Positions 14,206 to 32,000 are shown, numbered from the stretch's first letter. The stretch: DNA of 32,000 nt from Ruminococcus albus 7 = DSM 20455 (GCF_000179635.2 NC_014825.1:120001-152000), one strand, 5' to 3'. A program made the numbers and translations. Notes: generated by a model from the sequence alone, not told the origin.

Positions 14206-14230
14206 TCGGCGATCCGACGATTTTTCACGG

Positions 14231-14328
14231 CAAAAGAAAGGGGGCTGCCACGCAGCAGCCCCACGATCTCCGAGCCGAAGCTCGATTGCCCTTTTGCCAA
14301 ATGCCGTTCGTCCATACGGCATCGCCCA
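14231..14328 (-). ncRNA. Candidate ~100-nt small RNA (stand-alone promoter-to-terminator unit)
   Basis: It is bounded by the TTGACA-N17-TATACT promoter (14335-14363) and the terminator GGGGCTGC-TGCGTG-GCAGCCCC + CTTTCTTTTG (14262-14231). It contains two more hairpins: ATGCCGT/ACGGCAT (14301-14322) and CGAGC-UUCG-GCUCG (14271-14284). There is no SD-preceded ORF. Confidence 0.45.
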
Positions 14329-14334
14329 AAGAAT

Positions 14335-14363
14335 AGTATATCACTTCGGGTAACGGTTGTCAA
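14335..14363 (-). promoter_or_regulatory. Near-consensus promoter driving the candidate sRNA
   Basis: The minus strand reads TTGACA (14363-14358), a 17-nt spacer, then TATACT (14340-14335). Confidence 0.6.
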
Positions 14364-14535
14364 GTGGGTATTGATGAATTTTGAGCATAATTTCGGAACG
14401 GTTCGTCCGACCCTAAGAAAAAACTATACGAATAACATTACCATAATACCCTTTGCCCTGCACTTTTGATTGCAAGTCGAGTTATTGACATTCTATGAAA
14501 ATTGCGTTAAATTTCCGATTTCATAAGAATTACTC

Positions 14536-14564
14536 TTGACTTTTAGCACTTTAAAGTGTAAAAT
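14536..14564 (+). promoter_or_regulatory. Near-consensus promoter of the recombinase operon
   Basis: TTGACT (14536-14541), a 17-nt spacer, then TAAAAT (14559-14564). Confidence 0.65.
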
Positions 14565-14613
14565 CAAAATAGCAAAGGGGAACACTCCCCGAATACACGG
14601 GGAAGGAGGTTAA

Positions 14614-14718
14614 ATGCACAAAAAGATAGTAACTGCGGCTATTAGCCGAGTGACCGAAAACAGCGGCAAGTTTGTTGAAACAGCACCTGCCTACCTTATT
14701 ATAAAGGGGGCGGTATGA
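14614..14718 (+). CDS. 34-aa micro-ORF, translationally coupled to the next gene
   Basis: The strong SD GGAAGGAGGT ends 4 nt before the ATG at 14614. The product is MHKKIVTAAISRVTENSGKFVETAPAYLIIKGAV. Its TGA overlaps the ATG at 14715 (ATGA). Confidence 0.5.
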   Translation: MHKKIVTAAISRVTENSGKFVETAPAYLIIKGAV

Positions 14719-14951
14719 TGAAAACTCTGCTCTATGGACAAGCCGAATACTATTACGCCATCAGCTGCCAAATGACGCGCAGACTCGAACAGCAAGGTAT
14801 TATCACCGCCGATCAGCGCAGGCGGATCGACGAGCTTGACCGCAAGTCAATCTATGAAATGTATCCGTCGGTTGACGATCTGGAAACCGAAACAAGCGGC
14901 AGCGAAAATGCTGACGATGATAATAACGCCGATAACGATACGGCTTCATGA
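14715..14951 (+). CDS. Small hypothetical protein with an acidic tail, upstream of the serine recombinases
   Basis: 78 aa: MMKTLLYGQAEYYYAISCQMTRRLEQQGIITADQRRRIDELDRKSIYE... followed by a D/E/N-rich tail. I recognise no family. Confidence 0.55.
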   Translation: MMKTLLYGQAEYYYAISCQMTRRLEQQGIITADQRRRIDELDRKSIYEMYPSVDDLETETSGSENADDDNNADNDTAS

Positions 14952-15009
14952 GCGCCTAATATTATGCGGAGCAGGTCAAGCGCCTGTTCCGTATATAAAA
15001 ATATGAAAG

Positions 15010-15070
15010 GTCAACTGTTTTGTAGCAAGGCTGTCAACCGTATTGTAAGGAGCTTGTCAACTGTTCCGTT
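15010..15070 (+). repeat. Three phased direct repeats (23-bp period) upstream of the first serine recombinase
   Basis: GTCAACTGTTTTGTA (15010), GTCAACCGTATTGTA (15033) and GTCAACTGTTCCGTT (15056). A related GTCAAGCGCCTGTTCCGT lies at 14975. Confidence 0.6.
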
Positions 15071-15098
15071 GGAATGAATAAGAAGGGAGAAATTTGGT

Positions 15099-16622: not shown

Positions 16623-16624
16623 TT

Positions 16625-17500
16625 ATGGCAGTAAGAAAAACGCCGTATGGGTACATAATAGCGAACGGCAGAATCGCAGTCGATGCTGAGGAAGCAGAGG
16701 TCATCAAGCGTATCTTTTCCGATCGTATCAGCGGTCTTTCGGGCGTGAAGATAGGCGCGGCGCTCTTTGCCGAGCATATCGAGCCATTCACCGAAAGCGA
16801 GAAAAAAGCGGCTGACAGGATTTATTCCATTCTGAATGACGAACGATACTGCGGAGCTGACGACTATCCAACGATAATAAGCGAGGAAACCTTTGCCGCT
16901 TCAAGAGCCAGCATGAATAAAAAGACCTTTGGAAAAGAGCCTGACACCTACACTATACTCCGCAAGATGTCGTTCTGCTCCGAGTGCGGCAAGAACCTGG
17001 CACATTTCTCCGATCAGACAAGAGAGCTGCGTTGGCGCTGTACCAAAAAGGGCTGTATCAATTCCAAACCGAGAATAACAGATGTTGATTTCACAGCTTC
17101 GGTACTTGAAGTTCTGAACGCTGTCATTGAAACTCCCGAAATGCTTGACACGGGAGAACAGCTCACCGAATATGTTCCCGATGATAAAGTGGCAGCGATA
17201 GAAGCCGAATTGAAAGAACTGTTTGCGGCTGTCCCGATAGATCATGAGCGGGTCAAAGCCAAAGTGTATGAATTAGCAACAGCGAAGTACAACTGCTGCA
17301 CTTATAATCGCATACCTTATATAACAGAGGAACTTGTGCATATTATTCAAGGCTTTACGCCCTCGGAAGAGATCAACAAGCAAATGCTCACAAAGACTGT
17401 TGAGAAGATAACATTTGATAAAAACAAAGTGATAACCGTTACTTTCAAAAACGGCAGAAAAATAGCGGCAAAGGAGGGAGAAATATGTCAAGACCGATAG
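16625..17500 (+). CDS. Recombinase-domain protein lacking the N-terminal serine catalytic (resolvase) domain
   Basis: 291 aa. It starts directly at the recombinase-domain motif (KTPYGYIIANGRIAVDAEEAEVIKRIF) and has the zinc ribbon CSECGK...WRCTKKGC. There is no YxRVS/SR.(A)R catalytic motif. GAGGTGG lies 7 nt before the ATG. Confidence 0.8.
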   Translation: MAVRKTPYGYIIANGRIAVDAEEAEVIKRIFSDRISGLSGVKIGAALFAEHIEPFTESEKKAADRIYSILNDERYCGADDYPTIISEETFAASRASMNKKTFGKEPDTYTILRKMSFCSECGKNLAHFSDQTRELRWRCTKKGCINSKPRITDVDFTASVLEVLNAVIETPEMLDTGEQLTEYVPDDKVAAIEAELKELFAAVPIDHERVKAKVYELATAKYNCCTYNRIPYITEELVHIIQGFTPSEEINKQMLTKTVEKITFDKNKVITVTFKNGRKIAAKEGEICQDR

Positions 17501-19122
17501 AAGCGGCTTCAAACGTCAAGATAATTCCTGCAATGTCCTCGGAGGAGTTGAAACAGGCAAAGTACAGGCAGACGAGAGTCGCGGCTTACTGTAGAGTATC
17601 TACCGATCATGAGGAGCAGGCGAACAGTTACAAGGTGCAGATAGATTACTACACGAACCTCATAAATTCCAACTCCGAGTGGACAATGGCTGGTATCTAT
17701 GCTGACGAGGGTATCAGCGGAACGCAGACCAAGAACCGCAAGGAGTTCAACAAAATGATACGCAAGTGCCGGCAGAAAAAGATAGACCTTGTGCTCTGTA
17801 AGTCTATATCCCGTTTTGCCCGAAACACCGTGGACTGCCTTGAATATATCCGCGAGCTGCGCCTGCTGGGTATCGGCGTTATCTTTGAAAAAGAGAACAT
17901 AAACACCCTTGCTATGAACAGCGAGTTTATTATATCGCTGTACGGGTCGTTCGCTCAGGCGGAGTCGGAATCAATAAGCAAGAACGTTTCATGGGGAATA
18001 GAAAAATCTTTCAAGGAAGGGAAAGTAAAATATGTCATGGACAAGACCCTCGGATACCGCATGGGCGAGGACGGCAAGCCATACATTGTCGAGGAAGAAG
18101 CCGAGATCGTGCGGCGCATATATCGTATGTTCCTCGACGGTCTGAGTATGCAGAGGATAGCCGACATAATGCAGGCGGAGGGGGCTGCCCGAAGAAGCGG
18201 CTGCACTACATGGAACCGCAGCAACGTCAATTATATTCTCAAAAACGAGAAGTACGCGGGTGACGCTATCCTGCAAAAGAGCTATACGATTGACTGCATC
18301 ACTCACAAGCGGGTCAAAAACAACGGCGAGAAGAACAAGTACATTCTGCATGACTGTCACCCTGCGATAATCGACCGAGACACCTACAACCGCACTCAGC
18401 AAGAACTTACAAGGCGCTGTACGATAAAGCAGCGCAGCGATAAAGCCGTGACAGCTCAGGGGCGGTACGCCAGCAAGTATGCTCTGACCGACATAATGAT
18501 CTGCGGCGAGTGCGGCACACCTTACCGTCGCGTAGTGTGGAACTCTCATGGGAAAAAGCTGCCCGTCTGGAGATGTATCAACCGCCTTGATCACGGCAAC
18601 AGATACTGCAAGCATTCCCCGTCGCTAAATGAGGAACACTTACAGCAAGCGATAATTGATGCTATAAACACAGCATATACACATAATACGGCGTTTCTGC
18701 AAAGCATGGAGAACAATATTTCCATTGTTTTGAACGATGAGGACAAGAACAACACCGAACGGGTCAGAATAGAAAGCCGCCTTGCGGAGATAGACAAGGC
18801 TCGTGACGACCTGATACATCTTGTAACAAGCGGTTCGGTCGGAGAGGATTCTCTCGACAAGGAGTTTGAAGCCCTGAACGACGAGGAAAGCTACCTGAAA
18901 ACACAGCTTGAAGCTATGAAAAGTCAGACCGAGAAGCGTGATGAAGTACGGTACTCCATAATGTCGGCGGTCGAGGGCATTGGAGAAATGGAGAACACTA
19001 TGGTCGATTACGATGAAGTTGCGGTCAGGAAGATGATCGAGTGCATAAAGGTTTTGTCAAAGACCGAAATACTGATCATTTTCAAGGGCGGTTATGAATG
19101 TAATGCCGTTGTGGAAAAGTGA
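17485..19122 (+). CDS. Large serine recombinase
   Basis: 545 aa. It has VAAYCRVSTDHEEQANSYKVQ, CKSISRFARNT, GYRMGEDGKPYIVEEEAEIVRRIY, the zinc ribbon CGECG...WRC and a coiled-coil tail. It overlaps the previous gene by 16 nt. Confidence 0.92.
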   Translation: MSRPIEAASNVKIIPAMSSEELKQAKYRQTRVAAYCRVSTDHEEQANSYKVQIDYYTNLINSNSEWTMAGIYADEGISGTQTKNRKEFNKMIRKCRQKKIDLVLCKSISRFARNTVDCLEYIRELRLLGIGVIFEKENINTLAMNSEFIISLYGSFAQAESESISKNVSWGIEKSFKEGKVKYVMDKTLGYRMGEDGKPYIVEEEAEIVRRIYRMFLDGLSMQRIADIMQAEGAARRSGCTTWNRSNVNYILKNEKYAGDAILQKSYTIDCITHKRVKNNGEKNKYILHDCHPAIIDRDTYNRTQQELTRRCTIKQRSDKAVTAQGRYASKYALTDIMICGECGTPYRRVVWNSHGKKLPVWRCINRLDHGNRYCKHSPSLNEEHLQQAIIDAINTAYTHNTAFLQSMENNISIVLNDEDKNNTERVRIESRLAEIDKARDDLIHLVTSGSVGEDSLDKEFEALNDEESYLKTQLEAMKSQTEKRDEVRYSIMSAVEGIGEMENTMVDYDEVAVRKMIECIKVLSKTEILIIFKGGYECNAVVEK

Positions 19123-19129
19123 ATAATAA

Positions 19130-19168
19130 CAGCCTGCGTTCTTGCGTATCAGTAAGCGGCGCAGGCTG
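19130..19168 (+). terminator. Hairpin after the recombinase operon
   Basis: CAGCCTGCG (19130-19138) pairs with CGCAGGCTG (19160-19168), 8 nt after the stop. It is followed by only TTT, so this is a weak terminator. Confidence 0.5.
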
Positions 19169-19351
19169 TTTCCGTCTTAGGGCAAGTATACGGCACTTTT
19201 GATTTTTGGCATGACAAAAAACGTCCGAAAGCAGAGCCGTCAAACGTTCGTAAAACTCTCAATTTTGCACTTCAACCCGAAAAAAGTATGCAAATACACA
19301 GCTTTTTCAGGACTGATTTGACCACCCGTTTACGTTAAAGACAAAGAAATC

Positions 19352-20431
19352 TTACCAACTGAACATATCCATGCAAGCCCTTTTACGTTCAAAGTTGGAG
19401 TGAACATAAAGCCGCATTGTCAGTTCTACGCTGCTGTGTCCGAGTATCTCCGACAACGTTTTAACATCGAAGCCCAGCTCAATCGCTCTGCTTGCCCAGC
19501 CGTGGCGCAGGGCATGATAATGGATATGTGGCAGCCCCAGCTTCTTTAAAAGCCTTGAAAAACGGTACTGCATGGCTCTCGGCTCCATAGGCTTGTCCTT
19601 CCCGGTCAGCAGAAAACAGCCGTCATCAGCCTTGAATGACCGGAGCATTTCTATCATACATTCGGGGATAGGTATAATGCGGCGTGATTTCTCGCTTTTC
19701 GGCTCGCTGATAATGAGCTTGGTTTTGCCGCCGCCCTCATGGTTCTGTATGCGCTGCATGGTCTTTTTCACGGTCAGTGTGCGGTAATCAAGGTCGATGT
19801 CTGCCCATGTAAGAGCGCACAGCTCGCCTACACGAAGCCCGGTGTACATGGTGAGGGCAATACCCATGCCGGCAAGAGTGGGCTTTTCCGTTATGTACGA
19901 TTTCAGCTTGTTTTCCTCGTCCTTGGTGAGCAGACGCACCTCCTTCGACTGCTTCTTGGGCATTGTGATACCGTCAAATACGTTTTTAAAGCCGTATTCC
20001 CGTGCGGCATACTTGAACATCGACTTCATCAGCACAAGAATATCCGAAACATAGCGGCTTGAAAGCCCATTGCCGATCTTGGCGTTCATGAAGCCGTATA
20101 TCTCCTTGCTGCCGACAGCACAGCAGTTCATAGCTCCGAACGACGGTATTATGTGCTTTTTTAGCTTCAACCGATAGTTTTCAAGCGTGGATTCTTTGAC
20201 ACGATTCTGCACCGACAGCAGCCACTCTGCCGCAAGGGTGGCTATTGTCATTTTCGATGCCGGAATGTTCGGAACAGCGGAAAACTGCGTCAATTCGTGC
20301 TTTCTGCGAACTTCTTCCGCTGTCGCACCATAGTATGATTTGTACCTGCGCTTGCCGTTCTCGTCCTTGCCGAGGTAGACCCGCCCCTCGTATCGCCCGT
20401 CCTTGCGGGCATAGATGTTTAGTGTATTCAT
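19352..20431 (-). CDS. int: Tyrosine integrase, Tn916-Int-like, with an AP2/arm-type N-terminal DNA-binding domain; catalytic residues intact
   Basis: 359 aa. The N-terminus is YARKDGRYEGRVYLGKDENGKRRYKSYYGATAEE. The catalytic set is YTGLRVGE (Arg), SEPKSEKS (Lys), HALRH, LGHSS and RLYVHS (Tyr). Confidence 0.9.
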   Translation of the reverse strand: MNTLNIYARKDGRYEGRVYLGKDENGKRRYKSYYGATAEEVRRKHELTQFSAVPNIPASKMTIATLAAEWLLSVQNRVKESTLENYRLKLKKHIIPSFGAMNCCAVGSKEIYGFMNAKIGNGLSSRYVSDILVLMKSMFKYAAREYGFKNVFDGITMPKKQSKEVRLLTKDEENKLKSYITEKPTLAGMGIALTMYTGLRVGELCALTWADIDLDYRTLTVKKTMQRIQNHEGGGKTKLIISEPKSEKSRRIIPIPECMIEMLRSFKADDGCFLLTGKDKPMEPRAMQYRFSRLLKKLGLPHIHYHALRHGWASRAIELGFDVKTLSEILGHSSVELTMRLYVHSNFERKRACMDMFSW

Positions 20432-20526
20432 TTGTTTTTCTCCTTCAAAAATCCACTTAAATTGTCTGCTTTGTTAAAATAATAATTGTGTTTCCAATTT
20501 GTTAATCATTTTTGCTGTCTAAACTA

Positions 20527-20555
20527 TTGACTTTCCATGTGAAATTTGATATAAT
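20527..20555 (+). promoter_or_regulatory. Consensus promoter upstream of the tandem recombinase-like genes
   Basis: TTGACT (20527-20532), a 17-nt spacer, then TATAAT (20550-20555), in a very AT-rich 238-bp divergent intergenic region. Confidence 0.65.
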
Positions 20556-20669
20556 TTTATTAAGAACGATATGTATATAAGTCTATTTTCTACATAAAGT
20601 TATTCTATATTATATCATTTTTTGGTTGACTTTAAATTGAGAGCTTTATGAATGTTTTCGGAGGTGTGA

Positions 20670-21587
20670 ATGAGTATTGTCAAGGAACAAATACTGGTGA
20701 ACGATATGACAGTCTCCGATTTGTTTGAAGAATGGCTGGCAAGTAAAACAATAAGGTCGGATACAGCAAACAATTACAGGATCAAATACAGACGGTATCT
20801 TGAAAGAATACTTGGTGGCATCAAGGTCAACGACATCACGGCAGAAAAATGGAAGGAGCTTGAAACGGAAATTTCAAACGGCACTGATTCAAGGGGCGAT
20901 TCTCTTACGCTTACCGGTATCCGATCTTTGTTTCAGATGCTTCGTTCAATTTTCACTTACGGAACGAAAAACTATGGCTTGAACTACCCTATGGGAGAAA
21001 CCAATCTGCCGGAGGATAGGTATACCTCTGAGACTGTTTTTTCTCCGCACGAAGTAGAGATACTCAGAAAATCTGTCAAGCCGTACAAACCCGATCATCT
21101 TGGGATCATGCTCTGCATCTATACGGGAATACAGCTCGGCGAACTTTGCGGTGCCAAATGGGGCGACTTTGATACTGACGAAAGGGTGTTGAGGATTCGG
21201 CGTTCATTGGCAAGGGAGCATGATAAGGAAAATGATAACAAAACCGTTCTGAGGCTGACCGAATACGGAAACGAAAGAACCGCCCGAAATCTTCATATCC
21301 CCGACTGGATAAACGATCAGCTCATACTGCTGAAGCGTATACATGATGACAACGAAATGTTTATCCCAGGAAAAAGCGGAAGGTGTGAGCCTGTTATCTT
21401 TGTAAGCTACAGCTATACGGGATTTCTTGATAAAGCCGGCGTGAAATACAGATCGTTTACAGCCACACGGAACACATATATAAAGGTATCTGTTGAAAAC
21501 GGCATGAGCTCGGAAGAACTGAGCCTTCTGCTTGGCGATCCGAGCGAGGAGTACACAAGGAAAAAATACTATGATAAAGTGAAATGA
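20670..21587 (+). CDS. Tyrosine-recombinase-like protein with substituted catalytic residues (likely non-catalytic)
   Basis: 305 aa. GGAGG lies 5 nt before the ATG. It has a SAM-like core-binding N-domain. YTGIQLGE replaces YTGLRVGE (Arg to Gln), FTATRNTY replaces HALRH, and LGDPSE replaces LGHSS. Confidence 0.8.
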   Translation: MSIVKEQILVNDMTVSDLFEEWLASKTIRSDTANNYRIKYRRYLERILGGIKVNDITAEKWKELETEISNGTDSRGDSLTLTGIRSLFQMLRSIFTYGTKNYGLNYPMGETNLPEDRYTSETVFSPHEVEILRKSVKPYKPDHLGIMLCIYTGIQLGELCGAKWGDFDTDERVLRIRRSLAREHDKENDNKTVLRLTEYGNERTARNLHIPDWINDQLILLKRIHDDNEMFIPGKSGRCEPVIFVSYSYTGFLDKAGVKYRSFTATRNTYIKVSVENGMSSEELSLLLGDPSEEYTRKKYYDKVK

Positions 21588-21590
21588 TAA

Positions 21591-22535
21591 ATGGAAAATA
21601 AAGAAACGACCAATATGACATTTCGGGAACTGTTTGATAGATGGCACAAGGAACGAAGCGAATCGGTGACAGAGACCACAAGCAAGGTGTATCGTTCTTA
21701 CCTCAACAAATACATTCCCGATGATTTAAAGAATCGTTCGGTGAACAGCATCGACTTTGACGAATGGAAAAGTATAAAAAATGAAATGCTGAACGGCAAA
21801 GCTCCGAACGGTTCAAAGGTGGTGTCAAGCACCGCAAGAATGGCTCTCGGAGTTTATCACGCGGTATTTATATACGGAAAAAGAAATTTTGGTCTGAAAA
21901 ACCCTGCTGACGGAGAATCGATAAATTACAGAGATATACGTTCAATTACCGTGTTTACCGAAAAAGAGGTAAGAAAGCTGCGAAAGGCGGTAAAGCCTTA
22001 CGACGTGGTTCACCTCGGCATAATGCTTTGCCTGTACACGGGAGCTGAAGTAAACGAGATCTGTGCTGTCAGGTGGGGAGACTTAGACCTAAAAAATAAT
22101 CTTTTGAAAATACGCGGAGTGGTAGAAAAAATCAATAAAAGGTCAAAAAAGGAAAAGAATAATCTCATAGTTGTTGAAATCACCGAAAAAAAGAACAGTC
22201 GAGAGCTGCCGATACCCACATGGATAGCCGAACAGCTGAAAATAATGGAGCCTATGCACGACGATGATGAGAACTTTCTCACCGGCGAAGAGGGATGCGC
22301 ATATCCTATGACTTTTCGAGGTCAATATGTGGCTTTCGTCAAAGCTGCCAGAGTGCAGAAACGATCCATAAGTGCTCTGCGCCACACCTTTGCAATGACC
22401 TGTGTTAAGAAAAATGTCGAGGTCGGGACGCTGAGCGAGATGCTCGGGCATAAAAAGGTCAGTGATACGCTCAGAATGTATTACAGAAAGCAGATGACGG
22501 ATAAACGTGAGATAGTCGAAAATTTGTACGAATAG
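21591..22535 (+). CDS. Tyrosine-recombinase-like protein, paralogue of 20670-21587, Arg-I substituted
   Basis: 314 aa. HLGIMLCLYTGAEVNEICAVRWGDLD has Arg to Glu, and SALRHTF has the first His changed to Ser. LGHKK and RMYYRK are retained. It starts 4 nt after the previous stop. Confidence 0.8.
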   Translation: MENKETTNMTFRELFDRWHKERSESVTETTSKVYRSYLNKYIPDDLKNRSVNSIDFDEWKSIKNEMLNGKAPNGSKVVSSTARMALGVYHAVFIYGKRNFGLKNPADGESINYRDIRSITVFTEKEVRKLRKAVKPYDVVHLGIMLCLYTGAEVNEICAVRWGDLDLKNNLLKIRGVVEKINKRSKKEKNNLIVVEITEKKNSRELPIPTWIAEQLKIMEPMHDDDENFLTGEEGCAYPMTFRGQYVAFVKAARVQKRSISALRHTFAMTCVKKNVEVGTLSEMLGHKKVSDTLRMYYRKQMTDKREIVENLYE

Positions 22536-22624
22536 TGCTTTCTGTGACAGTTTTGAGAAACGCTGATGAAAGGCTTGAAACAATACATTAGAACCGGTTG
22601 AAAACTTTCGGGAAGTGTGATATA

Positions 22625-23530
22625 ATGAATAAAGCAAAAACGCCGAATGAACAACCTGATAATTTGGTTTATCTCAAAGAAACTCCTGCTGAAAGAACTT
22701 TGTTCGGATTTCTTACGATACTTATTGGACTTGGTATCTTCGGCTGTGTGGCTATCACCTTGGTCGGTATCAGCAGGTCGGGAAATATGAGTTTCTTCGC
22801 CAGAATGAAAAATACGGTCAGGTCATGGAATTCCGACTACTATGATATTCGGACAGACGCACCCGAAAAGGATACTATTATAATAGGTACACCATTGAGA
22901 AAGACCACACCTGATGTGCGTAGGATAACCGCCGATCTTCATGAGGACAGCAGCTGCGGCAGTTTTATGCCCGGTTCTTACGGAATGGCAAAGGTGTACA
23001 TTATCCCTCACAATAAAAATGCCGAACTTACGGTTGACCTTAGCTTCAATGTTTACGGTTTAGTGAAAACGGCGGACGGTCAATACATAAGGATTGATGA
23101 ATTGGAAAATGATCTTCCCGAACAGGAGAAATGCAGCAAGGCTGATAAGCTGCTTAACGGTCACATTCTTTTCTTCATGGAGAAGGAGAACGGTTACAGC
23201 GGCTTGCTGAAAGACGGGAGAATGACATACAACACAGCGGAACATCAGGAAGACCTGAACGCTAATGGAGAATACGAGGTCACGGTCTACTGGGTATGGG
23301 CTGAATACTTTGAGCAGCTTTCAAGTATAAATGCAGAGGGAGCGGTCATCAAGGATGTTTCTGAATCGGAAACGGTAAAAGAATACATAAACAGCCGCCC
23401 TGATGAGTTCTTTCTAAAGGGAGCGGGAGAAAGTGTATCGGAGATGCTGAACGACCAGTACGATAACGCAGACCTGCTCATTCATCAAAACATCGACGGA
23501 TACGGTTTTGAGATAATAGCAAATAACTGA
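22625..23530 (+). CDS. N-terminally anchored/secreted protein, family A member 1 (uncharacterised)
   Basis: A TM segment LFGFLTILIGLGIFGCVAITLVGI is followed by MSFFARMK. It is paralogous to the next gene (GHILFF, VYWVWAEYF, YDNADL motifs). The start is uncertain: ATG at 22625, or the TTG at 22598 used by the track. Confidence 0.7.
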   Translation: MNKAKTPNEQPDNLVYLKETPAERTLFGFLTILIGLGIFGCVAITLVGISRSGNMSFFARMKNTVRSWNSDYYDIRTDAPEKDTIIIGTPLRKTTPDVRRITADLHEDSSCGSFMPGSYGMAKVYIIPHNKNAELTVDLSFNVYGLVKTADGQYIRIDELENDLPEQEKCSKADKLLNGHILFFMEKENGYSGLLKDGRMTYNTAEHQEDLNANGEYEVTVYWVWAEYFEQLSSINAEGAVIKDVSESETVKEYINSRPDEFFLKGAGESVSEMLNDQYDNADLLIHQNIDGYGFEIIANN

Positions 23531-23548
23531 CAGAAAGAGGTGGAGCAG

Positions 23549-24640
23549 ATGAAAGATAACAATGATCTTACAACCAGTAACAAAATTGAAATAGCGGAAT
23601 CTGCTTCAGCCCATGCCGAAGTTCGCTTGGAGGAAGTGCGCTCTGAATACCAAAAGCGCAAAATAAAGCTGATGAAGATCAGCTGTATGGTGATTATAGT
23701 CAGCATTGTCCTTGTTTTTGCAACTCGAAGCTGGTTTACCATGTCGAGAGAGGTTGAGGGAACTGGGGCTAATATGACGGCTAACGATTTGGTATTTGAA
23801 ATAAAAACTGTCGGCTCAGTTTCTCCGAATGGCAATATTCTCGAATCATTGGGTTATAAAGATGGAACTCCAATAACAAGCGGAGCTACTTCCGCAAATG
23901 TTGGTGATATTAAATGGTTGCTTCAAGCCGACGATGATATGGCAGACGCAGGATTAAGACCTGGTACAAATGGAAATTTGAATTTTGTAATTCAGCCTGT
24001 GAATAATGACAGTTCAAAAAATCTTTCAATAAACTATAAAATCGAACTAACAGCTTATAGACTTTCTGACGATATGAAAGCACAGATAGCTGACGAAACA
24101 CAAAAAAAGCTAAATGGTCAAAATTATACAATGCCAACTGTTACAATCGATGATCTTATTCAATTATCTGATAATACTACCGATACTAATTATTCAAAAG
24201 CTATTGACTACATAAAAGGGCATATACTATTCTTTAAAAATGCTGATAATTCTGGCAGGGTATATTTTGGAGAAACGCAAACAATAACATTTAATTCGTC
24301 GGAAAATAAAGAAATACCATTACACTGGGTTTGGCCCGATACTTTGGGAAATATGGTTTTAACTGGTAATAACATCATTAATGTTTGTGCTGGAGATGAA
24401 AAAGCCGACCTTATAAGCCATATCCAGAATAATCCGGCACTCTATTTTTATTCAAATGATTTGGACGATGATATGTTAGAAAATGGAAAGATTAAATCAA
24501 ATGTTTTAGGAGACGATATTTCAGACTATTATCCAACGCTCAATTTGGCGTATAATGATGCTGATCAAGAGATTGGAGTTAATATTCAGTATATTATGAT
24601 CGAACTGATAGTTGATGGCGATGTTGTGGGTGCTGAATAA
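23549..24640 (+). CDS. N-terminally anchored/secreted protein, family A member 2, TasA/camelysin-like N-terminus
   Basis: AAAGAGGTGG lies 5-6 nt before the ATG at 23549. The TM segment ISCMVIIVSIVLVFA is followed by TRSWFTMSREVEGTGANMTANDLVFEI. It shares the motifs GHILFF, LHWVWPDT and YNDADQEIG with the upstream gene. Confidence 0.75.
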   Translation: MKDNNDLTTSNKIEIAESASAHAEVRLEEVRSEYQKRKIKLMKISCMVIIVSIVLVFATRSWFTMSREVEGTGANMTANDLVFEIKTVGSVSPNGNILESLGYKDGTPITSGATSANVGDIKWLLQADDDMADAGLRPGTNGNLNFVIQPVNNDSSKNLSINYKIELTAYRLSDDMKAQIADETQKKLNGQNYTMPTVTIDDLIQLSDNTTDTNYSKAIDYIKGHILFFKNADNSGRVYFGETQTITFNSSENKEIPLHWVWPDTLGNMVLTGNNIINVCAGDEKADLISHIQNNPALYFYSNDLDDDMLENGKIKSNVLGDDISDYYPTLNLAYNDADQEIGVNIQYIMIELIVDGDVVGAE

Positions 24641-24661
24641 TACCAAAAAGGAGGCGGCGAA

Positions 24662-25534
24662 ATGATGAAGATTAAAATAATTAATACAATAAAATCTTAT
24701 TATGAGAAGCTGTCTAAAAAACGTAAAATTCAGTTACTTGTGTCGATTTTATTAACAGTAATGATTGGCATATCGATTCCGGTTTTAGCTTGGTTTTCAA
24801 AGCAACGGAAAATGGCTGTTTTAACCAATATTAATGCTCCGTATACACTATATCTTAGTGCTGGTAATCAGGAAAGTATAGTGTATTTGGATATGTCTTC
24901 TATAGACGTTGGAACCCCTGGCAACAGAGTTACAACGCACAAGGATTATGTGTTTAGTGTTCAAGGTTCTTGGGATATTAATGAATATTATTTGCAACTT
25001 GCTCATACTACTAATATTCCGTTTAAGTATTCTGTTTACAGAGTCAATAATGACGATATATATTCAGTTTCTGAATATGAAGATCTATCAGATGTATTAA
25101 AGGGAACATCAGTTTCATATACAACTCATAGTAATGGAGAGGGTACTAGTCCGCAAACCATTTATTATACATTTAGAGCAAATGAGAATTATACATATAA
25201 CGACGCAGATAAACAATATGGTAAAGTGATGGATGCTTCTAATTATGTTAATCACGCAGGAGATCAATTGGCAGTAAAGAATTCATCAAATACATATTAC
25301 AGTCAAACATATGATGAAACCAATACTACAAGAGTTCAGAAAAACGCTGTTCCTTTGTATATGCAAGCGGGTCCAATCAAGAAAAATGCCGAAACCCCTA
25401 ATGGGCAAGATTTTTGCGATTACTATGTTTTAAGAGTTGATTGGTCTGATGCTCCAAGTCTTAGAAATGAAAAAGAAACAGATGAGATTTATATTACGGT
25501 TGTTTCTCCATCCGTGGTTAGAACAAGCGACTGA
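24662..25534 (+). CDS. N-terminally anchored/secreted protein (uncharacterised)
   Basis: AGGAGG lies 7 nt before the ATG. The TM segment LLVSILLTVMIGISIPVLAWF is followed by SKQRKMAVLTNINAPYTLYLSAG. The protein is 290 aa and Asn/Tyr/Ser-rich. Confidence 0.75.
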   Translation: MMKIKIINTIKSYYEKLSKKRKIQLLVSILLTVMIGISIPVLAWFSKQRKMAVLTNINAPYTLYLSAGNQESIVYLDMSSIDVGTPGNRVTTHKDYVFSVQGSWDINEYYLQLAHTTNIPFKYSVYRVNNDDIYSVSEYEDLSDVLKGTSVSYTTHSNGEGTSPQTIYYTFRANENYTYNDADKQYGKVMDASNYVNHAGDQLAVKNSSNTYYSQTYDETNTTRVQKNAVPLYMQAGPIKKNAETPNGQDFCDYYVLRVDWSDAPSLRNEKETDEIYITVVSPSVVRTSD

Positions 25535-25574
25535 TTTACTATAATACAAGAGATTAGAAGGGAGGCAAGTGTAA

Positions 25575-26627
25575 ATGAAAAAACGAATCCTTAGATTTTT
25601 GAAGACATATTGGATAGTAATTTGGTTAGTATTGTCAGTGTTTGTGCTTGCTTCCATAACAACTTATGCTGCCTATGTTAGAACACAAAATGTTAAGCGC
25701 GTAATAAGCACGATGGGCGGAGCAGGCAATCGTTTTTCTTCCAATCGACTTGATGAACTTGAAACAGATAATGCTGCTCATGTATTTCGCTTAATTCCTG
25801 TTCCGGGTAACGTTCATGATGGTGGAATTGATAGAGCTTTGTCAATATGCAATTACCCTCAAGGATTTGAAGCGTCATATTATGAAACAACAATTTATTA
25901 TGATCTTAAAGTAGAATTGACAGATAATCAATCATTAGCTCCGGTTTTTGAAAATGAAGCTGCTGAGCTTTTGCGTTATTATGTTGAAGAAAGTGATGGA
26001 ACGAAACATTATTTTGAAAAAGACTCGGGAACAAATAGATTTTTTCTAACAATCGGTAATCAAGAATTGAAAGGCAAAAAAACCAGTACGAACACCTATA
26101 CGATTCATTTTCCTAATGTCAATACAGGAATATACATGGATTTCTTTGCAAAGCCCTTAATTCTTGATGGAAACCAAAAAAAATCTACTGATGATTTAAA
26201 ATCTCTCGGTGCAATTATAAGTGCAGTATCTGTAGATCAAAGTGAGGATACGAACTGGTCAGGAGCTTTAGTTGAACCTAGAGCTACCGGTAAAGCTGTT
26301 ACTGACTATGATGCTTTTAATTATGTTATTAGTGGAGCAGGAGCAGGAACAATAACATTGAAATGGAAAGCAGATATGTTGGAAATCAACACTCATTACA
26401 TGGATAATGAAGGCATATCTGCCGTAGTAGATGGTCCGGAAAATGGATATTATTCACTAAAATATAATGTTACAGCAAATCAAACTAAAAACAGATATTC
26501 ATTCCAAATGTATAAAAGCACTAATTCAAATTGGAGTAGTATAACTAATTTTTCTTCAATTGCAAATGATGATAATTCAAACGATCCTTTAATTATTTTT
26601 AACTTTACGGCTTCGACATCACCTTGA
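25575..26627 (+). CDS. N-terminally anchored/secreted protein (uncharacterised)
   Basis: GGGAGG lies 9 nt before the ATG. The TM segment YWIVIWLVLSVFVLASITTYAAY is followed by VRTQNVKRVISTMGG. The protein is 350 aa. Confidence 0.75.
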   Translation: MKKRILRFLKTYWIVIWLVLSVFVLASITTYAAYVRTQNVKRVISTMGGAGNRFSSNRLDELETDNAAHVFRLIPVPGNVHDGGIDRALSICNYPQGFEASYYETTIYYDLKVELTDNQSLAPVFENEAAELLRYYVEESDGTKHYFEKDSGTNRFFLTIGNQELKGKKTSTNTYTIHFPNVNTGIYMDFFAKPLILDGNQKKSTDDLKSLGAIISAVSVDQSEDTNWSGALVEPRATGKAVTDYDAFNYVISGAGAGTITLKWKADMLEINTHYMDNEGISAVVDGPENGYYSLKYNVTANQTKNRYSFQMYKSTNSNWSSITNFSSIANDDNSNDPLIIFNFTASTSP

Positions 26628-26703
26628 TATATTGAGTGTTTTAGATACGGCTGTAATAGGGCTAATACAACTTACAATTATGTGAAAGGAAGGCTCGAAT
26701 AAC

Positions 26704-29700
26704 ATGAAAAACAAATCGAATAATAAGAGACGCTCGAATTTGTTTAAGCGTGTAGTGTGCCTTGTTTTGTCAGCTGCAATTCTTATATCAGATTCGTATA
26801 TCTTAACTGTTTTAGATGACATTGGAATAAATTTGCTTCCTGTTGTATATGCTGAGGAAACGAGAAACATTAGTACTATTAGTGAGTTGGTTCAGTATTC
26901 TAAAGAATATGATGCTTCTCATGCGAAAGATACTCTTAATATTTCTATTGCTTCCAATGGAGTTGGAACATATCAAACCTCTGATACACAGTATTCTTAT
27001 GACGAATTCATTAGTATTGGCAATAGTTCATCTAATGCATTTGAGGGAACAGTCAATATAACGGTTTTGGCTAGTTCTTATTTCAATTTTTCAAAACCAT
27101 TATTTGGATATATTAAGGATAGTGCGCAAGTAACAGTTTCAGGTGGAAGCAGTAGTGGGTATTTGGAGTTGAGAAGACCGATGACCTCAAACCTTATGCC
27201 AATTTTCGCCGAAAATGTTATTCATGATACAGATACTACAAAATATGACCCTGCTGATGAAAGTCAATATACTAATTGGAGAATTAGGATCAATTATTTT
27301 CATGAAGAAGGCGAAGCTTCGGTTGTCACTAACTTTCCAAGTGTAATTGGTCGTATTGATGATAACAGCAAATTAAGTCTTGATATTTTAAATGATGCTC
27401 AATATACAAATAATGGAGAAGAATATAAAGCTGATATTCAAGCGACAGCTTCCGGTGTAAACGCAGGATTGATTTGTGGCACATTGGGGGAGAATGCCGA
27501 AATTAAGGTATCAGTTGGCGGTTCAAACACCAATTTTTCTGTCACATCCGCAAGTGGAAATGCTGGTGGTTTGATCGGTGAAATGGAATCTGGCTCCAGA
27601 GTAATTCTTGATGGTTCAAACATAACAGGAGGTTCTAATAGAACTATAACGGCTTCAAATGGTTATGCAGGTGGTTTAGTTGGAAAAGCCACCAATGCTT
27701 CCATAGTATTTGACAACGGTTTTAACGTTAATGAACACATTAATGGCAAAAACGGTGCCGGAAGTATTGCCGGTTATTATATTAGTGGAAGCGGAACAAC
27801 ATTTGATCTTGATAAAGCACAGATTAGCTGTACAGTAACCTCAGCAAATGCCGGAGGTCTTTTTGGTGTGCTTGAAACATCAGGTGATTTTTCTTTGGCT
27901 GGAGCTAAAGATGCTGAAACAGGTGATGATTCTTATTCAATTTCTACAACTGTAGCAAATCAACCCCAAAATGCAGTTTATGGAGGATTGATTGGTTTAT
28001 ATAAAACAAGCGCACTTGTTAACACACTTACTATTGGCGAAATAGCTTTAACGACAAATGGTACTGGCAATTGTGCGGGATTAGTTGGGAAAATTGATGA
28101 CTCCAATCCTGCTTATATTACGGTTAATGGCTCTTCGGTTACAAATAACATTAAAAGCTCATTTTGCGGTGTTGTAAACAATGCCGGAAATGCAGGTCAT
28201 TTTTTGGATATAGGCGATTTTACGCTATCAGGTTCGTCTCATTCCGGTCTTGTAGGTACTATGAATTGTGGTGTTATTAGACTTACTGGAACTACTGATC
28301 TTTCAGGTACTACCAGCTCTGATGCTCAGCTTGTCAACAAGAGAGGAAATACCCTAATTTATGGAGTAGGCGATGGCAGCACAAGCGGTTGGCTTTTCAA
28401 ACGAGGAACCGCTGCCGCTGTTGATGATATTGGAAATTGGGGCGAAGTTGTTCGCGTTGCAAGTGATGGTTCAGGAGATGTTTTTGAGTTTGATTCTTCT
28501 GCGCATACTGTAACTGTGGCATCTTCAACGACTTCAATTTCAACACCAGCTCAGTTTATTGCTACTGCTGTAAATATGCAGATCAATCAGGGAGATCGTG
28601 GTGCTTTACAATTTGCTCAGGACTCAAATGATGATACTAAAACTGTATCTGATACTCTTCTCAGCAGTTTAACCACTATTTCTATATCAGGAACGATTAA
28701 TCTCGCAGGTACGGGAGTAATGGGATTAATGCGCGACGATGGCAAAAAAACCACTTTTTCCGGTAATACTGCAACTGAAACTGATGTTGCTTTTTCCGGA
28801 ACTATAAATGGTGGTGGAATTGTTAATCTTGCAATTGGTGAACCTTATGGAATAAGAGGAACATCTGCATTAACTACTAACGGCGATGGTAATGGTAGAC
28901 TTCATGGTCATGCTAAAGTAGGTTTACTTTCTGTATCTGATGATGCAACTATTTCGAGTCTTACGATTGGAGGAACAATTGATACTAAGGCTAGCATTGA
29001 AATGTACTTAGGAGGATTTGTCGGTCAATCGAAAGGTGATCTTTCTTTGACAAGTGTCACCAACACAATTAGAATAGATGGTAGCTTCAGTTCGGATAAA
29101 AGCCAGTATATTGGTGGAATGATTGGTGAAGTTGAAGGTAATGGGTCAGTTATCTCAATAAGTGGAAGTAATAAATCTGTTATTTCTTTAAATGGGCATA
29201 AAACGACCTATGCATCAAATGGAATAGGTTTTGTTGAAGACAATACAGTTACTGTAAGTTTCAGTGATTATACTTTAGGAAATACCAGTTCTACAAGTTC
29301 AGCAAGTTTATCTAATACTTCTGGTGCAGATTACGCAAGATGTGGTGGAATGATAGGTGTTATCAACGGTTCCACAAAGAATAAAACTGTCAATTTTAAT
29401 GATGTATCGATTTCCTACTATGATTTGAATTTAACAGCAAGTGAGTGTGCAGGTGGAGTTCTTGGGTATAAATGGGATAATACAGAGGTTAATATTGGTA
29501 ATACCGGAACGACAGGAATAGTTGTTTCTTACGGAGATGTTGATCAGACAGCTGTTAGTGCTGCTGGTTTGGTACACACCGCAACGGGGCATTGGGCTGT
29601 ATCAAAATTAAAAATTAATAACACTGACTTTGGTTTAATTAACACTACTAATTATGGTGTCCTTGTAAATAAAGGAGATGGACTTTTTATGGAAATAAAG

Positions 29701-32000
29701 AGTTCATCAGGTTCTAACAATGGATTTGACCTTAGTACAGGTAACACTGTAACAAACACAGGAAGTACTTTAACTGTTTATGATGAATTGGTTGCATACA
29801 GCGCTTCGGTTGATGATAGTGGGAATTCTAATGTGCTGAACAACGGTAATGGAGTTGTATCTATTCATACTGCTAGCGGAACTGTAGTTGGTGGTAAATA
29901 TTCAAATCAGATAACTTCTCCGAACAGTTTAAACAATAATAAATTCACAAGATATTATTATGATTTAGATGTTATTCGTGCAGCTGTTACATCGGGTTCA
30001 TACCCATCAGGCAGTACAACGGCTGAACAGAACGCATATAAACTGATGATGTGGAATCTTAAACAGTATGCCAGTTCCGGTATTCAGTCATATTTTACGT
30101 CTTCAAATAATGCAACAGAGCCCCTGACAGGTGATTTTGATTTATCAAAAGTATCTTATTATCCAATTAATAGAGCATCATCTGATGTTAGTATAGGTGC
30201 GGCTAGTTTTACTTTCAATAATAAGAATATAGAAGATTCTGTTGTTGCAGGAACTACCTACCGCTCAACAGTTAGTAATAATTCCCAGCATTATTTGATG
30301 CATTCCGGATTATTTAATAATGTTACTAGTAATTTAAGTATAGGTGATAATATCACATTGTCTGGTAGTATTGGTAAACATGAAAATGGGTCAGGTGCTA
30401 TAGTTACCGGCACTTTAGGCGGACTTACGGAAGGAACAACTTCGTTTTCCAATACAACAGGAAAGCTAATAACCTTAAACGGATTAACTGTCAATGCTGC
30501 TGATAACTATACTCCTGAAGGGGAATCGAGTGCGGTTACTACTTATAAACCGGTTCTGATAAACAGAATCAATAATCACGTTTCATTATCTCTTAATGGA
30601 GTAAAAACAGCTGCTAATAGCTATGTTGCTACTGGCGGCGGTGTTAATACTGCGGGTTCAAGTTTGATAGGAACGGTTGGTACAAGAGATGGAGATAATA
30701 AAGCCACCTCAGATTCAATCAGTTTAACATTTAATGATATAAGACTTGATGCGAGAACAGATTCAAACAAGAGTGTGGAGGCATTATCGGGTCTTTCAAC
30801 AGCCTATGGAACTACTCAAGGTGTATTTACAAGAGCTACTCTTTTAGAAGAGTTTATCTTTAATAACAATAGCGACTGTAAAGGAGTGTATAATTATAGA
30901 CTTTCCGAGGACTGGAATAGTTCCACAAAAGCAGCCATTCATAATGTAACTTACGGTTATGAAATAACCGGAACAAGTGAATTTGTAGGTATGCAGGATC
31001 ACTATGTAGACTTGCTGGGAAAGACTGACCCAACATCGTATGATAATACACAAGATGAAACAGAATATAGTTTTGCTGACTTTCTTCCTTATGTAGCTGT
31101 TCGAAATTATTCTGAGGCAAGTGATACACAGCGTTCAAGAGAAATAATGGTCAATCACACCAATGTTAGTATTACTGACGGCTGTGGCACGTATAATGAT
31201 CCTTATATAATTGATACTAATGGTCAGATAGAAGTTATTGCAAAGATTTTGGAACAAGGCGAAGTTAGTGATGGTTTTACTATCAATGTTCCTAATATTA
31301 CTGCTGTTTCGGGCACCAATTTCACTTATGAAACTTGGCATACCAACGATCACATTCTCTTAACGTTCAATAACGGCACCTATAAAGCGAGTACTGCAAC
31401 ATATAATCATACTACGGCACAGCTTGCAAAGTATCTTGCTGGTGCATATTATAAGATCACCAAGGTTGAAAAAGAGGGTGAAGATGATACTGTAACTTAT
31501 GAGAGTATTACAATAAGCAGCGCTTCGTTTAATGGTCTTGGCGGTACCTCTAATGAGTATGCTTTTCATGGCGTAATAGTAGGAGATACTGATACTGCAA
31601 CATATCCTCTTGTCAATAATACCGGTTCTCCGCTTATCAAAACAAGCCATGGTAGTGTTGTGAAAGATTTGAATATTAATGTCAGAAATGAGAATATCTC
31701 TAGAACACAGGAAAACAATACTCAGAAATTCGTAATTAGTGGTGGCTGCTCTAACTACGGAGCTGTTATCGGTCAGATTCTTGGTGGAGATAATATCATA
31801 GATAATGTTGCTGTAGATTTTACAGATTCAACCATTAAAGTTGAAGGTTCATCTGCAAATGTTATTCCGGTAGGCGGATATGTTGGTGTTGTAGCCAGCG
31901 GTGCCCTGATTTTCAGAGGAATGAACGGTAAAAACCATGCCGGACTTACAACAGGCATTGTTAAGGACGGTACAACAAGTATAGCTATGGATAGCACTGA
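26704..32000 (+). CDS. Giant secreted repeat protein (5' part; at least 1765 codons, runs off the window) with GLUG-like GG[LMFV][IVL]G repeats; putative surface adhesin/fibre
   Basis: It is not in the supplied ORF track. AAGGAAGG lies 9 nt before the ATG at 26704. I read every codon of this frame to 32000 and found no stop. The signal peptide is MKNKSNNKRRSNLFKRVVCLVLSAAILI...VVYA-EE. The repeats include AGGLIGE, AGGLVGK, AGGLFGV, YGGLIGL, CAGLVGK, SGLVGT, LGGFVGQ, IGGMIGE, CGGMIGV, AGGVLGY and VGGYVGV. A GCGTYNDPYIIDT module start lies near 31180. Confidence 0.9.
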   Translation, partial: MKNKSNNKRRSNLFKRVVCLVLSAAILISDSYILTVLDDIGINLLPVVYAEETRNISTISELVQYSKEYDASHAKDTLNISIASNGVGTYQTSDTQYSYDEFISIGNSSSNAFEGTVNITVLASSYFNFSKPLFGYIKDSAQVTVSGGSSSGYLELRRPMTSNLMPIFAENVIHDTDTTKYDPADESQYTNWRIRINYFHEEGEASVVTNFPSVIGRIDDNSKLSLDILNDAQYTNNGEEYKADIQATASGVNAGLICGTLGENAEIKVSVGGSNTNFSVTSASGNAGGLIGEMESGSRVILDGSNITGGSNRTITASNGYAGGLVGKATNASIVFDNGFNVNEHINGKNGAGSIAGYYISGSGTTFDLDKAQISCTVTSANAGGLFGVLETSGDFSLAGAKDAETGDDSYSISTTVANQPQNAVYGGLIGLYKTSALVNTLTIGEIALTTNGTGNCAGLVGKIDDSNPAYITVNGSSVTNNIKSSFCGVVNNAGNAGHFLDIGDFTLSGSSHSGLVGTMNCGVIRLTGTTDLSGTTSSDAQLVNKRGNTLIYGVGDGSTSGWLFKRGTAAAVDDIGNWGEVVRVASDGSGDVFEFDSSAHTVTVASSTTSISTPAQFIATAVNMQINQGDRGALQFAQDSNDDTKTVSDTLLSSLTTISISGTINLAGTGVMGLMRDDGKKTTFSGNTATETDVAFSGTINGGGIVNLAIGEPYGIRGTSALTTNGDGNGRLHGHAKVGLLSVSDDATISSLTIGGTIDTKASIEMYLGGFVGQSKGDLSLTSVTNTIRIDGSFSSDKSQYIGGMIGEVEGNGSVISISGSNKSVISLNGHKTTYASNGIGFVEDNTVTVSFSDYTLGNTSSTSSASLSNTSGADYARCGGMIGVINGSTKNKTVNFNDVSISYYDLNLTASECAGGVLGYKWDNTEVNIGNTGTTGIVVSYGDVDQTAVSAAGLVHTATGHWAVSKLKINNTDFGLINTTNYGVLVNKGDGLFMEIKSSSGSNNGFDLSTGNTVTNTGSTLTVYDELVAYSASVDDSGNSNVLNNGNGVVSIHTASGTVVGGKYSNQITSPNSLNNNKFTRYYYDLDVIRAAVTSGSYPSGSTTAEQNAYKLMMWNLKQYASSGIQSYFTSSNNATEPLTGDFDLSKVSYYPINRASSDVSIGAASFTFNNKNIEDSVVAGTTYRSTVSNNSQHYLMHSGLFNNVTSNLSIGDNITLSGSIGKHENGSGAIVTGTLGGLTEGTTSFSNTTGKLITLNGLTVNAADNYTPEGESSAVTTYKPVLINRINNHVSLSLNGVKTAANSYVATGGGVNTAGSSLIGTVGTRDGDNKATSDSISLTFNDIRLDARTDSNKSVEALSGLSTAYGTTQGVFTRATLLEEFIFNNNSDCKGVYNYRLSEDWNSSTKAAIHNVTYGYEITGTSEFVGMQDHYVDLLGKTDPTSYDNTQDETEYSFADFLPYVAVRNYSEASDTQRSREIMVNHTNVSITDGCGTYNDPYIIDTNGQIEVIAKILEQGEVSDGFTINVPNITAVSGTNFTYETWHTNDHILLTFNNGTYKASTATYNHTTAQLAKYLAGAYYKITKVEKEGEDDTVTYESITISSASFNGLGGTSNEYAFHGVIVGDTDTATYPLVNNTGSPLIKTSHGSVVKDLNINVRNENISRTQENNTQKFVISGGCSNYGAVIGQILGGDNIIDNVAVDFTDSTIKVEGSSANVIPVGGYVGVVASGALIFRGMNGKNHAGLTTGIVKDGTTSIAMDST

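Follow-up and report, generated by a model that had tools for sequence, protein, structure and literature searches.

How does a protein of 3,425 amino acids (aa) without a wall anchor stay on the surface of a Gram-positive bacterium? The question is raised by a 32,000-nucleotide (nt) stretch of Ruminococcus albus 7 = DSM 20455 (GCF_000179635.2, NC_014825.1:120001-152000), called here the window, meaning the whole of the DNA that was analysed, in which four genes for small proteins with an N-terminal hydrophobic helix, P1 to P4, stand directly in front of the gene for a giant secreted protein. R. albus and R. flavefaciens are model fibre degraders, and how they attach to plant particles is understood only in part; the locus offers a testable case of such retention. 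We propose, with a probability of roughly 55%, that P2, P3 and P4 are exported, SipW-processed, low-copy adaptor or initiator subunits of a TasA-like fibre, of which a further protein family, P0, would supply the major subunit, P1 the base and the giant protein the cargo. These five unannotated families and the giant proteins, in which no domain is recognised, make up a conserved locus tied to SipW-type peptidases. The features on which the argument relies are as follows; an arrow marks a putative cleavage point.

22625..23530, + strand: P1, 301 aa; open reading frame (ORF) opens at TTG 22598; exactly ADU24254
23549..24640, + strand: P2, 363 aa; ORF opens at GTG 23540; exactly ADU24255
23660..23808, + strand: portable N-terminal module of P2, comprising the hydrophobic region, the predicted cleavage site and two short beta-strand-like segments; homologous to the P0 N-terminus
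23781..23808, no strand: mosaic break inside P2, where DNA similarity to related loci ends and GC drops
24662..25534, + strand: P3, 290 aa; exactly ADU24256
25575..26627, + strand: P4, 350 aa; exactly ADU24257
26704..32000, + strand: giant secreted protein, N-terminal 1,765 aa; Sec-type signal ending VVYA↓EE

P1 to P4 are identical to the R. albus 7 records ADU24254-ADU24257, each of which is named "hypothetical protein", and we found no paper naming any of the four accessions. The initial annotation of this DNA had described four co-directional genes separated by 18, 21 and 40 nt, and so they are: all ORFs lie on the + strand, the gaps hold with starts at ATG 22625 and ATG 23549, and the peptides that it quoted (MSFFARMK, RSWFTMSREVEG, LAWFSKQRK and TYAAYVRTQN) are present. 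Homologue alignments and the exact database matches over 301 and 363 aa make these two starts the most likely ones for P1 and P2, rather than TTG 22598 and GTG 23540, and the P2 start has a ribosome-binding site, AAGAGGTGGAG, upstream. A sigma-70-type promoter-like site occupies 22598-22626 (TTGAAA, a 17-nt spacer and a TG-extended TATAAT; 11 of 12 consensus matches), and its -10 box shares positions with the ATG at 22625, the probable start of P1, an overlap that may be chance or the marker of an alternative start.

The giant ORF lies directly downstream of the four genes, as had been described, begins at 26704 and has not closed by 32000; where the identical operon occurs in other assemblies, the protein reaches 3,425 aa, and its gene is always the next one after P4. 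It contains many repeats with GG(L/I/M)(I/V/L)G, among them a direct-repeat family, D2, at 27564, 27981, 29112 and 29343, and Pfam found no domain over 3,308 aa of giant protein (compare L134:11130-21053). The pattern [LIS]PX[TAS]G is absent from P1-P4 and from the first 1,765 aa of the giant protein, and LPXTG from 2,447 aa of it (P0044). The window was also said to be devoid of a sortase signal, a SipW-type peptidase and an ATPase, and indeed no LPXTG motif and no SipW, P0 or ATPase homologue was found there.

A cleavage-type site behind the N-terminal hydrophobic region

P2, P3 and P4 each have the basic n-region and hydrophobic h-region of Sec-type signals. In P2 a long n-region and about 18 hydrophobic residues lead to TRS↓WFTMSREVEGTGANMTANDLVFEI, the predicted cleavage falling immediately before the W codon at 23732-23734; in P3 the sequence KKRKIQL precedes a hydrophobic region that ends in IPVLA↓WFSKQRKMAVLTNINAPYTLYL (W codon 24791-24793), and in P4 the hydrophobic region ends in ITTYA↓AYVRTQNVKRVISTMGGAGNRFSSN (A33 codon 25671-25673). 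Among 87 diverse members of the P2 family the residue at -3 is S, T, A, V or G and that at -1 is A, S or G without exception, followed by W in all 87 and by F in 86. The family consensus runs RKxxLIK, about 18 hydrophobic residues with F at -5, S/T at -3, I at -2 and A/S/G at -1, then W-F and T-M-N/S-R/K-E-V-x-G-x-G-M-x-V-T-A-x-D-L-P-F-E-I. Its n-region is long, with a median of 60 aa up to the W and of about 40 aa before the hydrophobic stretch.

To place these sites among their relatives, a degenerate DNA pattern for WFTM(N/S)xEV was scanned across species-representative genomes, which gave 120 blocks of up to 8 kb each; these were mapped with hidden Markov models (HMMs) and their neighbouring genes were clustered. 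The blocks come almost entirely from Ruminococcus, Oscillospiraceae, Lachnospiraceae and other Clostridia, with R. albus 8, three R. flavefaciens strains, Eubacterium uniforme and E. ruminantium among the isolates. As the blocks were chosen by the WFTM motif itself, whereas the neighbouring genes were not selected for, the motif frequencies counted in them are partly circular: the WF pair is invariant or nearly so in P2 (43/43), P3 (38/38) and P0 (W in 75 of 76, F in 74 of 76). The -3/-1 rule of type I signal peptidases is obeyed upstream of the pair in P2 (87/87), P3 (38/38) and P0 (75/76), the P3 family reading (V/T)-x-A↓W-F in all 38 sequences and the P4 family Y-A↓x-Y, followed by an invariant KRVIST...FSS. 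The aromatic pair that had been noticed behind the transmembrane helix is therefore conserved far beyond chance in the P2, P3 and P0 families, and since the residues before it follow the -3/-1 rule, it corresponds to the P1' and P2' residues of a cleavage-type site. The P2' residue is F in 86/87 P2, 38/38 P3 and 74/76 P0 sequences and Y in P4. An aromatic residue also stands at subsite P2 (position -2) in 74 of 76 P0 sequences (Y/F), in P4, in part of the P3 family and, as in P0 and P4, in the giant signal VVYA↓EE; the P2 and P3 proteins of the window do not have it.

The segments that follow the site are the best-conserved parts of P2 and P4, yet in monomer models their predicted local distance difference test scores (pLDDT) are below 50, a combination that is expected of segments that fold only against a partner; in P2 the segment shows the alternating residue pattern of a beta strand. 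The description of all four proteins as N-terminally anchored is probably wrong for P2, P3 and P4, which are likely cleaved, and probably right for P1 only. Nor are the N-termini plain uncleaved anchors of unrelated families, as they belong to a shared portable module.

This arrangement recalls TasA, in which Phe at P2' and Trp at subsite P2 render the site refractory to the general signal peptidase LepB, the cut being made by SipW (PMC10269814). Once freed, the N-terminal strand of TasA intercalates into the next protomer, and TapA, a low-abundance initiator with a 43-residue signal peptide, donates its N-terminus (PMC10151520). The resemblance of the N-terminus to TasA/CalY that had been pointed out stands in part: a cleavage region of the form small-x-small↓aromatic-Phe fits the published rule (PMC10269814), whereas no TasA-family HMM, sequence or significant fold match was obtained.

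The P0 family, SipW peptidases and the conserved operon

Eighty-eight of the blocks encode P0, a newly recognised family of proteins of 320-560 aa with a short, classical Gram-positive signal peptide, KKxSAxKKLIPAxxMLAxSAxMLSTSTYA↓WFTMSREVEVxxIxMTATVPEDIQISLG, and a C-terminal signature, VRVWLEGEDxxCxNxNAGQxWxIxLxF. Over 56 columns the N-termini of P0 and P2 are homologous (hhalign 98.1%, E 8e-14; tblastn to window positions 23660-23782, E 4e-7), and a weaker homology joins P0 to the P3 N-terminus (hhalign 55%, E 1.2e-4; tblastn E 1.6e-4). Two P0 proteins bear the UniRef label "SipW-cognate class signal peptide".

P0 is linked to both sides of the problem. In 22 blocks a gene of the P0/P1/P2 type, mostly P0, lies directly upstream of P2 on the same strand, and one block, L047, holds the full order P0-P1-P2-P3-P4-giant. 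Parts of a conserved SipW cluster are found in 53 of the 88 P0-containing blocks; its order is an EAL protein (PF00563, E 1e-24), c5, SipW, a membrane AAA+ protein of ~522 aa, a DUF2357 protein of 640-775 aa, a second SipW and c9, a small membrane protein. The c5 protein is itself a P0 homologue (hhalign 96%) with the junction AYA↓VSYF, and both peptidases score 82-93 bits against TIGR02228 (cutoff 51.85) and match NF046067 SipW at E 2e-33 to 1e-24. SipW adjoins P0 in 24 of the 88 blocks, and 10 blocks of other genomes physically join the SipW cluster to the P2-P3-P4 operon. The membrane AAA+ protein has GISGTGKTS and LLDEMN motifs that look McrB-like, and it gave no Pfam match; the pair that it forms with the DUF2357 protein is lodged between the two signal peptidases in about 30 blocks (e.g. 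L112:1424-8002, L091, L088, L052 and L128). We found no paper linking SipW with Ruminococcus.

The operon itself is conserved as a unit in rumen and gut Clostridia, the outcome that the initial annotation had made a test of its proposal: P2-P3-P4-giant recurs in 27 of the 120 blocks. An exhaustive profile search gave 991 representatives of P2-family clusters (50% identity), of which 335 reach E <=1e-30, and a word-indexed search 27 relatives of P2 and 16 of P4. Several metagenome contigs repeat the layout of the window, with a serine recombinase, a 286-aa ORF, a serine recombinase, three tyrosine recombinases, P1-P4 and a giant protein of 3,500-3,700 aa. Minimal loci such as L012 and L013 lie among housekeeping genes and have the order P2, P3, P4, giant and a second large ORF, with neither recombinases nor P1, no P0 nearby and neither an LPXTG motif nor a transmembrane segment at the end; as P1 and the recombinases are missing there, the core unit is P2-P3-P4-giant.

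Proposed fibre subunits or a membrane platform

The four proteins had been presented as one set, of which two were paralogues. The paralogy of P1 and P2 is borne out (BLASTP E 8e-7 over ~260 aa; hhalign of the cores 99.4%, E 1e-21), the three sequence blocks quoted for it are present, and the two proteins have the motifs PGxxG, GHILFF, WxW and Y(N/D)xAD in common, those invariant in the P2 family being PGxxG, GHILFF, WxW and YNxADQxIG. By hhalign the cores of P3 and P4 resemble neither P2 nor TasA, nor one another, so that the set as a whole is less uniform than was thought; the P3 ectodomain is a distinct family with the motifs QLAHTTN, PLYxQ and ETDxIY. Pfam and NCBIfam scans found no family for P1-P4, the giant protein or 10 relatives, Pfam gave nothing for 87 P2 homologues or for 10 P0 proteins, and PDB sequence searches with single sequences and with the profiles A1, A2 and A7 returned nothing significant. 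AlphaFold2 monomer models were made of P2 (from 24 sequences) and P4. The P2 model (pLDDT 74) consists of a long N-terminal helix, low-confidence residues 65-82 and a beta-sandwich with a helical insert, its weak top Foldseek matches including the donor-strand pilin CsuA/B, a WxL-interacting protein and C3; that of P4 (pLDDT 66) has a helix, disordered residues 31-78 and two immunoglobulin (Ig)-like beta-sandwiches.

As the module of P2, P3 and P4 is linked to SipW peptidases in related genomes, these proteins are most likely processed accessory subunits, and the aromatic P1'/P2' residues, the long P2 signal peptide and the conserved post-site segment, which fit the logic of SipW and TasA, lead to the roles that we propose for P0-P4. 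P2, P3 and P4 would be exported by specialised SipW-type signal peptides that are not permanent anchors. Cutting, presumably by a signal peptidase of the SipW/archaeal type whose gene would lie at another place in the genome, would fall between the small residue and the aromatic pair (TRS↓WF in P2, VLA↓WF in P3 and TYA↓AY in P4), the aromatic P1'/P2' residues serving to exclude the general signal peptidase. The N-terminal segment so exposed (WFTMSREVEGTGANMTANDLVFEI in P2) may act as a donor strand, joining subunits by beta-augmentation as in TasA/TapA and BsaA. The TasA-like major subunit would be P0, which this operon lacks. P1 has an N-terminal hydrophobic helix and a P2-type ectodomain and lacks a small-x-small↓WF site, which makes it a candidate for an uncleaved, membrane-retained member; because it has the P2 fold but neither the cleavage site nor the donor segment, it could stay in the membrane as base or anchor. 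The 3,425-aa protein would be cargo or an adhesin put on display. Gene content, the conserved unit, the residue pattern of a cleavage site, the homology of the N-terminal module between P0 and P2 (and P3) and the genomic links of P0 to SipW and to the operon are observed; that the proteins are really cut, that they assemble by donor strands and what P1 and the giant protein do is our inference.

Several results weigh against this proposal. Alignment with TasA by hhalign was not significant (E 0.06-0.7), and the same method detects no homology among the cores of P0, P2, P3 and P4. The P2 model found no match in the PDB at E <=1e-3 with Foldseek (best E 7.5e-3), TasA being absent from the top 50, and the matches of P4 are generic tandem Ig-like folds (integrin thigh/calf, Als3, FnBPA, Cna, a sortase shaft pilin and antigen-binding fragments). 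Neither P1-P4 nor 10 relatives gave the TIGR04088 or Peptidase_M73 HMM match that a TasA kinship had led one to look for. The negative TIGR04088 result carries little weight for P2-P4, since NCBIfam scans of 24 proteins gave no TIGR04088 match at all and so missed even the P0 of L019, which bears the name of that model in UniRef. The window contains no SipW gene, nor do the 10-kb flanks of the operon at the loci linked to recombinases, and the circularity of the block counts noted above tells in the same direction. What is proposed, accordingly, is a system that works like TasA/TapA; membership in the TasA family was not found at the sequence level.

The main alternative is that P1-P4 form a permanent bitopic platform (N-in, C-out) that holds or folds the giant protein non-covalently, with no cleavage and no fibre, the WF pair being an interfacial aromatic belt. 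The cytoplasmic n-region of P2 is long and partly conserved, and its RKxxLIK motif, the F at -5 and other residues within the hydrophobic stretch are conserved in a manner that would suit a retained transmembrane helix packing against a partner; the AlphaFold2 model likewise draws one continuous helix over P2 residues 14-71, through the putative cleavage site, albeit at low confidence. A platform would also be in keeping with the lack of a peptidase in the window, with P1, which clearly has no cleavage-type site, and with a giant protein that has no wall anchor. A plain anchor, however, needs no -3/-1 rule, and yet the rule is kept almost without exception in P2, P3 and P0; in P0 the same module goes with a secretory signal peptide of the short, classical kind, and two SipW peptidases are linked to P0 in the genome, whereas the length of the P2 signal loses its force in view of TapA, which shows that long signal peptides are normal in SipW substrates. 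We therefore hold the platform to be unlikely, though it is the alternative that deserves most attention.

Two further explanations were weighed. P2-P4 could be an export or maturation apparatus for the giant protein, chaperone-like or accessory to secretion, in which the module only targets the proteins to a SipW-linked export site; the strict gene order P2-P3-P4-giant in 27 blocks, the ectodomains that diverge along with the giant protein across the mosaic break, and the minimal loci L012 and L013 without a nearby P0 would all agree with such a role. It appears improbable to us, as P2-P4 bear no ATPase, channel or enzyme signature, their beta-sandwich and Ig-like ectodomains are typical of structural surface proteins, and P0 is often first in the operon. 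Much less credible still is that the proteins are non-canonical type IV-like minor pilins with a retained helix, mirroring the FimU-PilVWX-PilY1 tip, an idea suggested by four small N-terminal-helix proteins followed by a very large non-pilin protein and by a weak match of the P4 profile (region 25575-25730) to the alpha-1 helix of a type IV pilin (PDB 8tob; SvyaaYirtqnvKRViS against IAIPQYQNYIAKSQVSRV). That match is not significant (E 0.089), no class III signal (G↓F/M-xxx-E) occurs in P1-P4 or the family logos, the cleavage-type residues stand at the outer end of the helix, and no PilB/PilC/PilD-type gene was found in any locus examined; the idea was rejected on the signal-peptide features. 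The SipW-processed fibre subunit thus remains the reading that we prefer for P2-P4.

A mosaic break, its surroundings and known systems

The N-terminal module of P2 is also where the DNA changes character. The left block, 13587-23808, comprising the recombinases, P1 and the first ~88 codons of P2, is 79-88% identical in DNA to L001, L004 and L009, whereas the right block, 23809-32000, has no blastn match and its proteins are only ~30% identical; GC falls from 0.43 to 0.33 at the break. As the break lies just past the conserved module, the module has been kept constant, whereas everything from the P2 ectodomain through P3 and P4 to the giant protein was exchanged or diversified together, which suggests cassette-like exchange or rapid diversification as one block. 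Should the fibre model hold, this hypervariable right-hand module would be a candidate for strain-level surface variation. A shufflon or inversion driven by the tyrosine recombinases was considered and dropped, because there are no inverted repeats at the 23.8-kb break and no second P2 5' end in the window.

Upstream of the operon lie recombinases and other genes.

19352..22535: three tyrosine recombinase genes directly upstream of P1, at 19352-20431 (- strand, 359 aa), 20670-21587 (+ strand, 305 aa) and 21591-22535 (+ strand, 314 aa)
15099-19122: serine recombinase, 291-aa recombinase-domain ORF and second serine recombinase; layout conserved in several metagenome contigs
13422-13667: small protein that looks HU-like by its sequence and position; L001 has a PF00216 gene at the corresponding site
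12103-12744: CHC2 primase-like protein
9860-11577: MobA/VirD2 relaxase with MobC/NikA
8132-9454: NYN-domain protein
5111-6684: IS3-type OrfA/OrfB
2448-3104 and 4053-4820: two IstB-like ATPases
191-1786: IS66 transposase

The tyrosine recombinases fill the place that P0 takes in other genomes, and the region 1-14000 is rich in mobile elements. Rfam and tRNA scans had no match in the window or in 16 related loci, and so gave no riboswitch, tRNA or att-site clue.

Taken at its widest, the locus would belong to a heteropolymeric surface fibre, widespread in Oscillospiraceae and Lachnospiraceae and not recognised before, with P0 as major subunit, the three unrelated SipW-processed adaptors P2-P4, the uncleaved P1 as membrane base and a cargo or tip adhesin of ~3,400 aa, and with the two SipW peptidases, the EAL protein and the McrB-like AAA+/DUF2357 pair engaged in assembly or regulation, that is, an NTPase-associated donor-strand system without a described counterpart; this extension is doubtful and we offer it tentatively. 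If P2-P4 are SipW-processed fibre subunits, donor-strand fibres of the SipW/TasA type would no longer be confined to homopolymers of the biofilm matrix but would include organelles of several subunits that present adhesins, in strictly anaerobic bacteria of rumen and gut, and the logo S/T-x-A↓W-F-T-M-N/S-R/K-E-V would be a usable signature for annotating SipW substrates.

The initial annotation spoke of a fibre or anchoring apparatus of an undescribed type, which was too strong, as the system is better regarded as a divergent and elaborate version of the SipW/TasA type. Its nearest likeness is to tapA-sipW-tasA of Bacillus subtilis and sipW-tasA-calY of B. cereus, which also have secreted subunits of beta-sandwich type, predicted as such here, with a small-x-small site before aromatic residues (TWA↓AF in TasA and TYA↓WF, VLA↓WF or TYA↓AY here), a dedicated archaeal-type signal peptidase without a sortase signal, a major subunit accompanied by one or more minor or initiator subunits with a long signal peptide (43 aa in TapA), and a conserved N-terminal segment as donor strand; the peptidase, the division into major and minor subunits and the donor strand are putative in the present system. 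Unlike in Bacillus, the proteins show no sequence or significant fold match to TasA/camelysin, there are four to five subunit families rather than two, the peptidases lie outside the operon and are paired elsewhere, and a 3,425-aa partner is added; the linked cluster, too, encodes additional proteins, namely an EAL protein and a membrane AAA+/DUF2357 pair.

Members of the clostridial BsaA/TasA family have diverged very far in sequence, often occur as several paralogues in one operon and form oligomers anchored in the membrane (PMC11580942). The sipW-bsaA-bsaB-bsaC operon of Clostridium perfringens resembles the present system as a clostridial SipW-dependent matrix or fibre with divergent TasA-like paralogues and a large accessory protein per operon, whose oligomers are anchored in the membrane and not in the wall, with no LPXTG, and for which donor-strand heteropolymers have been proposed. 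BsaA, however, is a protein of ~23 kDa that was found by iterative TasA-family HMMs, whereas P0 and P2-P4 are proteins of 290-560 aa that were not linked to that family here, and in place of a giant repeat protein there is BsaC, a vWA protein.

Two less related systems share the outline only in part. In FimU-PilVWX-PilY1 several small proteins with N-terminal hydrophobic helices come before a very large adhesin, whose presentation is attributed to them, but the loci described here have no prepilin signal or pilus assembly genes, and the cut is predicted at the outer face of the membrane. The WxL/Csc complexes of Lactobacillales likewise come from clusters of several genes for unannotated surface proteins, which assemble without covalent bonds; the Foldseek match of P2 to a WxL-interacting protein is not significant (E 0.03-0.08), and, unlike in WxL/Csc, there is no WxL domain, DUF916 or LPXTG partner. 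Set against tapA-sipW-tasA and sipW-bsaABC, the departures are the five new families, the giant protein without a recognisable domain, the duplicated peptidases and the EAL protein with the McrB-like AAA+/DUF2357 pair.

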